Both the position numbers and the translations under genes were made by a program. This document shows, in pieces, positions 15,641-19,419 of a stretch of DNA of 20,837 nt (position 1 is the stretch's first letter; each line of letters opens with the position of its first letter). The stretch is from the IMG/VR virus record IMGVR_UViG_2537562191_000053; one strand, given 5' to 3'. Under the pieces are notes generated by a model. The model made no database searches. It saw nothing but the letters and a program-made list of their open reading frames with translations, and was not told the origin of the DNA. The DNA is from a virus (Duplodnaviria; Heunggongvirae; Uroviricota; Caudoviricetes).

Positions 15641-17050
15641 ATGAGTAAAGTCTTTATTTGCGCCGCCATTCCGGACGAACAGGCAATAAAGGAAGAAGGT
15701 GCCGTCGCTGTAGCCACTGCCATTGAAGCCGGTGATGAACGTCGCGCCCGCGCAAAATTTCACTGGCAATTCCTGGAACATTATCCGGCTGCTCAGGACT
15801 GCGCTTATAAATTTCTTGTTTGCGAGGATAAACCCGGTATACCCCGCCCTGCCCTCGATTCCTGGGATGCTGAATATATGCAGGAAAACCGCTGGGATGA
15901 GGCGTCTGCTTCCTTTGTCCCGGTCGAGACTGAATCAGATCCGATGAACGTCACTTTTGACAAGCTGGCCCCTGAAGTACAGAACGCTGTCATGGTTAAG
16001 TTCGACACATGTGAAAACATCACCGTTGATATGGTGATTAGCGCGCAGGAATTGTTGCAGGAAGACATGGCAACATTCGACGGACATATCGTTGAAGCGT
16101 TGATGAAAATGCCAGAAGTTAACGCCATGTATCCGGAGCTTAAGCTGCACGCCATCGGGTGGGTTAAGCATAAATGTAAGCCTGGTGCCAAATGGCCCGA
16201 AATTCAGGCAGAGATGCGCATCTGGAAAAAACGTCGCGAAGGTGAACGCAAGGAAACCGGAAAATACACGTCTGTTGTTGATCTCGCCCGCGCCAGAGCC
16301 AATCAACAGAACACTGAAAATTCAACAGGAAAAATCAGCCAGGTCATTGCTGCCACTCATCGCGAATACAAGCAGACATGGAAAACACTGGATGACGAAC
16401 TGGCCTACGCTCTCTGGCCTGGTGATGTGGATGCCGGAAACATTGACGGCAGCATCCATCGCTGGGCGAAAAATGAAGTTATCGACAACGACCGCGAAGA
16501 CTGGAAGCGTATCTCGGCATCAATGCGCAAACAGCCTGATGCCCTTCGCTACGACCGCCAGACTATTTTTGGCCTTGTCCGTGAACGTCCGATCGACATT
16601 CACAAAGACCCTGTGGCACTGAACAAATACATTACTGAATACCTGACTACAAAGGGCGTGTTTGAAGATGAAGGAAGAAATCAGAGCGCAACTGATACTC
16701 TCTCGTCGCCAGTACCAGAAACTGATGCAGTGGAAACGGCGATTCCGGACAACGAAAAAACCGAATGCAAAGTGGAAGTCGAAGCATCTGTAGAGCGTGA
16801 GGGGCCGTTCTACTTCCTCTTCACCGACAAGGATGGCGAAAAATACGGTCGCGCAAACAAACTTTCTGGTCTGGATAAGGCGCTGGATGCCGGGGCTACT
16901 GAAATCACGAAAGAAGAATATTTCGCCCGCAAAAACAGTACATACTCAGGTTCACAACAAAATACTGGTGCATCTGACACGACCGCACAACCAGAGCCGG
17001 TAAAAGTTACCGCTGACGAAGTAAACAAAATTATGCAGGCAGCCAATATC
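15641..17050 (+). pseudogene. N-terminal 470 codons of a large early-left gene interrupted by IS629; the stop codon TGA is supplied by the first 3 nt of the IS
   Basis: GAGG RBS and ATG at 15641; ORF ends exactly at the IS boundary (stop 17051-17053 = IS terminal TGA). Confidence 0.8.
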
Positions 17051-17092
17051 TGAACCGCCCCGGGTTTCCTGGAGAGTGTTTTATCTGTGAAC

Positions 17093-17983
17093 TCAGGCTG
17101 CCAGATCATCGTTTCCGATGGAAGCATAATAAGCTTTTTCTGCTTCTGCCGGAGGAGTATGGCCCAGCCTTCCCAGCAATCGTCGATTGTTATACCAGTC
17201 CACCCACGTTAGTGTGGCCAGTTCCACTTCTGCACGGTTTTTCCAGCTCTTACGGTGTATTACCTCCGCTTTGTAAAGACCATTGATGCTCTCAGCCATC
17301 GCGTTGTCATACGAGTCGCCTGTACTCCCTGTTGATGCCAGTAATCCGGCTTCTTTTAGTCGCTCCGTATAGGCCAGTGACACATACTGAGAGCCTTTAT
17401 CGCTGTGATGGATGGTGCCAGACGGACGACGGGCCCACAACGCCTGCTCCAGCGCATCCAGCACGAATGTCGTTTCCATAGACGATGAGACCCGCCACCC
17501 CACGATGTATCCGGCAAACACATCAATGATAAACGCCACATAGACGAAGCCCTGCCATGTGCTGACGTAAGTAAAATCAGCCACCCACAGCTGGTCAGGT
17601 CGTTCTGCCACGAACTGACGGTTTACGCGGTCGCCTGCGGCAACGGCTTTCCGGCTGATGGTCGTACGGACCTTTTTACCCCGGAGAACACCGGCAAGTC
17701 CCATAACCGCCATGAGACGTGCCACTGTACATCTGGCCACCCTGATTCCTTCCCGTAACAACTGACGCCAGACTTTACGCACACCGTACACCTGATGATT
17801 TTCATCGTATACGCGCTGTATCTCTCTCTTCAGCCAGTCGTCGTGCTGCGCACGGGCACTGCGTTTATCCGGATGATGTCGCTGTTGCTGACAATGGTAA
17901 TACGTTGACGGGGCAATATGCAGTTCGCTGCATACCGGTCCGACCCCGTACTGCTCACGCAGCTTATCCAGCAGTGGCATCAT
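17093..17983 (-). CDS. IS629-like transposase OrfB (copy 2)
   Basis: Translation identical to copy 1 OrfB. Confidence 0.9.
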
Positions 17984-18306
17984 TTTTTCCAGAGGCGGTC
18001 GAACTCCGCCTTCGCAAAATAAGCGGAAGCCTGGCGAAGGATATCGTTACTGCGGCGCAGTTCACGATTTTCACGTTCCAGCTCTTTCAGACGCTGACGT
18101 TCAGCGCTGGTGAGCCCACCATCACCGCCCCCGGTATCCCGCTCATGCTGGCGAACCCAGACACGCAGAGTCTCCGGCGTACAGCCAATCTTTGGGGCAA
18201 TGGAACAAATTGCCGCCCACTGTGAGTCATATTCATCCTGACTTTCCAGAACCATACGAATCGCCCGCTGACGGACTTCGGGGGAAAAACGAGTATTTTT
18301 AGTCAT
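17980..18306 (-). CDS. IS629-like transposase OrfA (copy 2)
   Basis: Translation identical to copy 1 OrfA. Confidence 0.9.
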
Positions 18307-18360
18307 CCTGTTTACCTCTTTCTCAGGGAGTTTAGTCTCCAGGATTTCCGGGGCGGTTCA

Positions 18361-19419
18361 ATCAGCCAGCCTGACGCCGATAAGTTGCTTGCTGCCTCTC
18401 GCGGAGAATTTGTTGCAGGGATTAGCGACCCGAATGATCCGAAATGGGTTAAGGGGATCCAGACCCGCGATTCTGTAAACCAGAACCAGCATGAATCGGA
18501 ACGGAACTACCAAAAAGCGGAACAAAACAGCCCAAATGCGTTACAAAACGAGCCAGAAACGAAACAGCCTGAACCAGTGGCGCAACAGGAACTGGAAAAA
18601 GTCTGCACCGCCTGCGGTCAGACCGGCGGCGGCAACTGCCCTGATTGTGGCGCAGTGATGGGCGACGCAACATACCAGGAAACATTCGATGAAGAGTATC
18701 AGGTTGAAGTTCAGGAAGATGATCCGGAGAAAATGGAAGGCGCTGAACATCCACACAAGGAGAACACTGGCGGCAATCAGCATCACGATAGCGATAATGA
18801 AACTGGCGAGACGGCAGATCACTCAATTAAGGTGAACGGTCATCAAGAAATCACATCCACCAGCAGGACGTGTGACCATCTAATGATCGACCTTGAAACC
18901 ATGGGAAAAAATCCTGATGCCCCGATCATCTCAATAGGTGCAATATTTTTCGATCCGCAAACCGGAGATATGGGACCGGAATTTAGTAAGACTATCGATC
19001 TGGAAACTGCTGGCGGAGTCATTGATCGGGACACCATTAAATGGTGGCAATCACGCGAAGCGCAATCTGCCATTATGACCGATGAAATCCCGTTAGATGA
19101 TGCACTGTTACAATTGCGGGAATTTATCGACGAAAACTCCGGTGAATTTTTTGTTCAGGTCTGGGGAAATGGAGCCAACTTCGACAACACGATTTTGCGC
19201 CGTTCATACGAACGGCAGGGGATCCCCTGCCCGTGGCGTTACTACAACGATCGCGATGTACGCACAATCGTTGAGCTGGGGAAAGCCATAGACTTCGATG
19301 CCAGAACGGCTATTCCATTCGAAGGTGAGCGCCATAATGCACTTGATGACGCCCGTTACCAGACAAAATACGTTTCAGTTATCTGGCAAAAACTGATCCC
19401 GAGTCAGGCTGATTTTTAA
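18361..19419 (+). pseudogene. C-terminal 352 codons of the IS-interrupted gene: zinc-ribbon ([16 protein letters not shown]) plus DEDDh (DnaQ-like) 3'-5' exonuclease domain
   Basis: Frame is open from the first base after the IS (ATC AGC CAG...) and continuous with the N-terminal fragment across one copy of the ATC duplication. Exo motifs MIDLETMG (I), [10 protein letters not shown] (II), [10 protein letters not shown] (III). Confidence 0.8.

Follow-up and report, generated by a model that had tools for sequence, protein, structure and literature searches.

Two open reading frames (ORFs) flank a copy of IS629 near the distal end of a prophage early operon, raising the questions of whether they are the halves of one gene, what that gene encoded and what the insertion did to it. 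The locus (15641–19419) lies in a stretch of 20,837 nucleotides of tailed-virus DNA (Caudoviricetes; IMG/VR record IMGVR_UViG_2537562191_000053), which we call the window and which carries two copies of this insertion sequence (IS). The second (copy 2) is the subject here. An earlier reading of the letters and ORFs without database searches (the sequence-only reading) had proposed a single gene of about 821 codons ending in an exonuclease domain. Our computational analysis indicates that IS629/IS1203 very probably transposed between codons 470 and 471 of a modular 821-codon prophage exonuclease gene, duplicating ATC, with predicted loss of the nuclease function.

Reconstruction of the gene and anatomy of the insertion

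We reconstructed the gene by joining positions 15641–17050 to 18364–19419, that is, by removing the IS and one ATC. The resulting frame comprises 2,466 nt and 821 codons with a lone stop at its end, and is identical at all 2,466 of 2,466 nt to an uninterrupted gene of Escherichia coli O111:H- 11128 (NC_013364.1, ECO111_RS07450, WP_000048442.1; annotated as 'exonuclease'), showing that the continuity of the frame is real rather than a chance open frame. The orthologue of phage Evi (826 amino acids (aa), 88% identity) is collinear over the junction. Searching with the reconstructed protein and among related prophages thus recovered intact full-length genes in both 11128 and Evi, and the claims that copy 2 splits one gene and that the halves are still collinear stand. 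The protein search yielded 7,983 homologues, of which the best 120 are 798–831 aa in length with query coverages of 99–100%; a single 90%-identity cluster contains 23,183 sequences, and PHROG 2082 ('exonuclease', 823 profile positions) matches the reconstructed protein end to end. Judged by these matches, the intact protein belongs to PHROG 2082, a family that is very common in E. coli prophages.

The 470-codon ORF (15641–17053) terminates in a TGA at 17051–17053 that consists of bases 1–3 of the IS, and the flanks join in frame over one ATC, so that coordinates and translation agree with what had been read from the letters. Copy 2 begins with TGAACCGCCCCGG... and ends with ...CCGGGGCGGTTCA, imperfect terminal inverted repeats of the TG...CA type that are complementary at 22 of the first 25 positions. 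Its orfA and orfB overlap at 17980–17983 ('programmed frameshift' in the PGAP annotation), and the element thereby has the two overlapping ORFs, −1 frameshift and downstream pseudoknot that characterize IS3-family elements such as IS629; it is nearly identical to the reference IS629 of E. coli O157:H7. The duplicated ATC falls within the 3–4 bp reported for IS629 target duplications (PMC3271280). IS629 of O157 and non-O157 E. coli that produce Shiga toxin (STEC) likewise has a length of 1,310 bp, an orfA/orfB frameshift, a duplication of 3 bp and a location in prophages (PMC3271280, PMC9397093). Compared with IS629 in the prophages of enterohaemorrhagic E. coli, copy 2 is typical throughout, and only its site is private to one strain among complete genomes.

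The insertion would part the catalytic domain from the promoter and the start codon, the latter being retained by the 5′ fragment, and nuclease activity would be lost. Within the IS lies an upstream in-frame stop, and from there to a TTG at 18385 the frame contains no start codon; a promoter search of the plus strand from 14400 to 20000 revealed no candidate site. With neither a start before 18385 nor a detectable promoter, the 3′ fragment is predicted to have lost the nuclease function, and expression of a free nuclease domain from the 3′ half was rejected on the same grounds. The remaining product would be at most a 470-aa N-terminal fragment ending at the IS-borne TGA, and xis and int would probably receive less transcription from the early promoter. 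Major STEC serotypes, including O111:H8, carry an IS-excision enhancer (IEE) on SpLE1-like elements that can remove IS3-family elements (PMC9397093), so reversion of the disruption is conceivable in principle.

This gene family has been hit by IS elements more than once: at codon 257 by IS2 in K-12, by IS629 in O157 at a position 21 bp downstream of the copy 2 site (duplication, GTT), and by copy 2 itself in O111:H8 strain 7-54 11A. That two serotypes have hits only 21 bp from each other might reflect a hot spot for IS629, or else lysogens in which the nuclease is selected against. Under selection, lysogens would gain from the loss of the nuclease domain and the retention of the N-terminal fragment, and the repeated hits would be explained. 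We think this improbable, given that the vast majority of the thousands of genomes carry an intact gene and that it offers a large, dispensable target in a prophage, the compartment in which 62% of IS629 copies reside (PMC3271280). The junction survey sees only insertions near the copy 2 site, which precludes hot-spot statistics, and we make no hot-spot claim.

Domain architecture and the relationship to RecE

The catalytic domain of the reconstructed protein matches Pfam PF16473 (Rv2179c-like) with E = 4e-63 (212.8 bits against a cut-off of 27) over profile positions 2–177 of 177. All catalytic motifs are present, namely D646/E648 (DLET), D744 (NFD) and H794/D799 (HNALDD), and the motif H and D are invariant in the homologue alignment. 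The only matches in a sequence search of the PDB were two entries of T4 DexA, the better of which (8kel) had E = 6e-5. In an AlphaFold2 (AF2) model of the 3′ half, the DEDDh domain has a predicted local distance difference test (pLDDT) of 73–93, and Foldseek placed T4 DexA first (8ken/8kel; E = 1.8e-10, 21% identity), followed by RNase T, Orn, REXO2 and Cap18, with a probability of 1.00; model and search together reveal the RNase H-like alpha/beta fold of DEDDh enzymes. The domain had been called a DnaQ-like DEDDh 3′–5′ exonuclease; Pfam, motifs and Foldseek all uphold DEDDh, with DexA and Rv2179c rather than DnaQ proper as its closest kin. T4 DexA (PDB 8KEL/8KEN) and PF16473 share the fold and motifs with residues 642–811, but DexA (227 aa) is a stand-alone single domain and Rv2179c is small too (Pfam model of 177 positions), whereas in the 821-aa protein the domain forms the C-terminal quarter. 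By analogy with DexA, the intact protein would be a Mg2+-dependent 3′–5′ exonuclease acting most likely on DNA 3′ ends or single-stranded DNA, a function that we propose with low to moderate confidence, and it would be made only upon prophage induction. A PADLOC search for anti-phage defence systems with the intact protein gave no match, and we found no functional study in the literature on ydfE, exonucleases of dicBF operons or Rv2179c-like phage proteins.

The N-terminal domain, left as unknown by the sequence-only reading, can be placed. Residues 1–257 are 96% identical to translated K-12 ydfE and thus represent the ydfE product, and residues ~224–625 share homology with RecE outside its catalytic part. 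The AF2 model of the 5′ part has a mean pLDDT of 83.6, with folded blocks at residues 1–205, 240–340 and 388–432. Residues ~224–625 match the NCBIfam RecE model NF007259 with E = 1.5e-84 at model positions 247–602 of 877, which are non-catalytic; the score of 284.7 bits lies below the RecE equivalog cut-off of 1,269. BLASTP aligns residues 262–625 with K-12 RecE at 39% identity overall, and residues 474–625 (K-12 RecE 458–591), which include a CxxC-x7-CxxC motif, are by far the most conserved stretch of this alignment. With both K-12 and Rac-SA53 RecE, the alignment ends ahead of their nuclease domains, and the similarity stops ~15 residues short of either nuclease domain. In RecE, residues 564–866 form the nuclease domain and the N-terminal domain is of unknown function (PMC11611040).

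The four cysteines of this motif are conserved among proteins of the E. coli type, as well as in the two RecE variants that we examined, and are absent from every other 50%-identity representative. The region has no Pfam match, and in the AF2 model it lies within a linker of pLDDT ~60 or lower that contains isolated beta bridges only. The zinc ribbon that had been read here is therefore unproven as a ribbon, being confined to E. coli-type sequences and set in a low-confidence, disordered linker; the four-cysteine motif itself is present and is a plausible, lineage-specific zinc knuckle.

The RecE of the Rac prophage (PDB 3H4R for the nuclease domain) likewise combines a long non-catalytic N-terminal region with a C-terminal nuclease, and both genes stand late in an early-left operon near xis and int. 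They differ in that the catalytic domain of RecE is PD-(D/E)XK (5′–3′), whereas that of the 821-aa protein is DEDDh (3′–5′); the first 225 residues of the latter are YdfE-type rather than Pfam Exonuc_VIII, and it has no adjacent recT, unlike Rac RecE. Could the gene nevertheless be a RecE (exonuclease VIII), that is, a recombination exonuclease acting with an annealase partner in end resection? Orthologues are named 'exodeoxyribonuclease VIII' in phage records, the NCBIfam RecE model is matched and the linker aligns closely to K-12 RecE. We regard this as a very remote prospect: the match reaches 285 bits against the cut-off and touches non-catalytic positions only, the C terminus is DEDDh, and a Pfam search of the reconstructed protein found no PD-(D/E)XK domain (DUF3799, carried by the RecE-type relatives). 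Moreover, the source-record annotation lists neither recT nor bet nor erf from the repressor region to int, and the operon has no annotated annealase gene, xis and int following directly on the exonuclease; a 3′–5′ exonuclease would also not make the 3′ tails used by annealases such as RecT and Red-beta (established SynExo knowledge; PMC11611040). The lack of an annealase gene and the 3′–5′ polarity together argue that the protein is not a SynExo-type recombination exonuclease, and several phage records are misleading in calling members of this family 'exodeoxyribonuclease VIII'.

Of 1.84 billion cluster representatives, just 191 are related to the N-terminal 470 residues (E ≤ 1e-3). Among the long relatives (50%-identity representatives), a YdfE-type or RecE-type (Pfam Exonuc_VIII) N terminus is joined to a DEDDh or PD-(D/E)XK C terminus in all four pairings, which suggests that the nuclease head has been swapped on a shared scaffold. 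The RecE-like N-terminal scaffold would serve targeting or assembly rather than catalysis. The broader idea, that this region is a portable scaffold which prophages combine with interchangeable nuclease heads, we consider unlikely, though with a modest chance of being right. Separately, three proteins (P0128, P0133 and P0155) have a YdfE-type N terminus and middle region and C termini that lack a nuclease domain and give sub-threshold Rad52/Rad22-like matches (E = 0.02–0.05), a hint of annealase fusions on the same scaffold.

Distribution, age and authenticity of the insertion

At 100% identity, a single genome among 5,426 complete E. coli genomes has the left junction, that of O111:H8 strain 7-54 11A (bovine faeces, Pennsylvania), and the empty site is present in the 30 best-ranked genomes at least, nearly all of which are labelled O111. 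RefSeq PGAP already lists both halves in the 7-54 11A record as pseudogenes ('exonuclease, missing C-terminus' and '3'-5' exoribonuclease domain-containing protein, missing N-terminus'). In strain 11128 this prophage occupies the same site at potC without this IS, and window positions 12801–20837, with the IS and one ATC subtracted (~6.7 kb), match it exactly, confirming the earlier suggestion that the insertion is younger than the prophage. IS copy 1 (6213–7522, in the opposite orientation to copy 2) is shared with 11128, which makes copy 1 the older and copy 2 the new one. The insertion is recent and strain-specific; it is an ordinary IS-generated pseudogene, already annotated, and its junction can serve as a strain-specific marker. 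Both IS copies are flanked by ATC, so the duplications by themselves leave open an inversion between the two inverted copies; this was ruled out by a gene order identical to that of 11128.

A misplaced IS copy in an assembly of a genome with dozens of identical IS629 copies could also produce such a locus: the junction is found in just one complete genome, that genome contains at least 40 IS match pieces, and the two copies in the window are identical to each other. As an explanation, this is exceedingly hard to credit, because a perfect 3-bp duplication and complete IS ends at both junctions are not products of misassembly, and in other strains the same IS has independently entered the orthologous gene at a distance of 21 bp, which marks the region as a genuine target. 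That two naturally separate genes flank an IS lodged in their spacer is virtually inconceivable: some short database entries cover parts of the protein only (PHROGs 5943 and 14078, for instance, and a number of fragmentary representatives), which we count as no real support, and they are set against the identical uninterrupted 821-codon gene in 11128, full-length homologues of 820–831 aa by the thousand and an upstream stop codon that comes from the IS.

Some observations do count against the reading of a recent IS629 insertion that destroyed a functional prophage DNA exonuclease. The window differs from RefSeq record NZ_CP077574.1 by one single-nucleotide polymorphism (SNP) at 17856, inside copy 2, and in its first 60 bases; in that record the two IS copies differ at the SNP base, unlike in the window, and these differences suggest that the window may come from a sister assembly. 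The O111 allele reads WW--QS where 15 of 15 aligned homologues have WWLKQS, a two-codon in-frame deletion at codons 699–701 (19048–19056) in a conserved block of the DEDDh domain. The intact 11128 allele has it too, and the enzyme may, to judge from the alignment, have been impaired already before the IS arrived. PF16473 is named after an exoribonuclease, Rv2179c, and what we say of the substrate (DNA or RNA), of the part played in the phage cycle and of polarity towards xis and int is inferred from sequence.

Operon context and other features of the window

The gene order is ydfC, dicF, dicB, a ydfD-like DUF1482 gene, the exonuclease gene, xis, int and then potC (Table 1). The exonuclease gene closes the series of cargo genes in an early operon of the dicBF type, in a lambdoid prophage beside potC, and the presence of DicF indicates that the prophage carries a complete operon of this type. 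The dicBF operon of the K-12 Qin prophage has the same layout, and the prophage of the 821-codon gene keeps an intact distal end. Within Qin, the cryptic prophage pseudogene ydfE (b1577) belongs to the same family, occupies the same position after dicF, dicB and ydfD and was likewise destroyed by an IS. It spans 3079–3999 of the MG1655 stretch compared and is cut at codon 257 by IS2E, the remainder of the gene having been lost along with an intact int; in the O111 gene, unlike ydfE, both halves survive undamaged and collinear around IS629 at codon 470.

Table 1 Features of the split exonuclease gene, IS629 copy 2 and the surrounding operon. Positions are those of the window (source-record (PGAP) coordinate minus 1,150).
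Feature	Position	Strand	Details
5′ part of split exonuclease gene, codons 1–470	15641–17050	plus	identical to WP_000048442.1 codons 1–470; YdfE-type N-terminal domain (~1–225) and RecE-like middle (226–470)
3′ part of split gene, codons 471–821 and TAA	18364–19419	plus	RecE-like linker, Cys4 motif, DEDDh domain
CxxC-x7-CxxC, putative zinc knuckle/ribbon (C551, C554, C562, C565)	18604–18648	plus	
DEDDh 3′–5′ exonuclease domain, residues 642–811	18877–19386	plus	Pfam PF16473
IS629/IS1203 (IS3 family), copy 2	17051–18360	minus	1,310 bp
IS copy 2 orfA	17980–18306	minus	108 aa
IS copy 2 orfB	17093–17983	minus	296 aa
IS copy 2 frameshift pseudoknot	17909–18025	minus	Rfam ALIL, 121.5 bits against a gathering score of 50
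Left target-site duplication ATC	17048–17050		3 bp
Right target-site duplication ATC	18361–18363		3 bp
DicF small RNA	14946–14997	plus	Rfam, 76.7 bits; between ydfC and dicB
dicB	15172–15360	plus	PGAP
ydfD-like DUF1482 gene	15357–15548	plus	PGAP
Excisionase (xis)	19481–19750	plus	
Integrase (int)	19719–20837	plus	potC next after int in source record

Elsewhere in the window, IS copy 1 lies inside a hok/sok toxin–antitoxin locus, between the sok RNA (7552–7727, minus strand; Rfam, 119.8 bits) and the Hok coding sequence (~6089–6229, minus strand), which in the PGAP annotation extends 17 bases into the IS. Beside copy 1 are a 'Beta protein' gene (8115–9212, plus strand; PF14350, E = 7e-52; PADLOC PD-Lambda-2_C, E = 1.4e-40) and a convergent gene of the sce7726 family (9172–9750, minus strand; PADLOC model 'cll', E = 2.7e-28). 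On the basis of these profile matches, the pair (8115–9750) resembles an anti-phage defence cassette in partial or variant form. In the prophage's late-regulatory region, positions 1387–1998 contain the small RNA AgvB (anti-GcvB; 1387–1446, plus strand; 56.6 bits against a threshold of 56), STnc100 (1448–1656, minus strand) and two tRNA genes (1769–1998, minus strand; Arg and Ile in the source record). A YdaT-family 'toxin' gene (12059–12484, minus strand) stands beside the repressor region of the same prophage, and a relB/relE-type toxin–antitoxin pair (13273–13744; source-record annotation) lies in the early-left region.

For the gene family, K-12 ydfE is now interpretable as what is left, at the N terminus, of a protein of the 821-aa type with a RecE-like scaffold and a DEDDh nuclease. 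If the RecE-like region is a scaffold that brings various nucleases to a single target in the cell, the version with DEDDh would represent an uncharacterised phage function.

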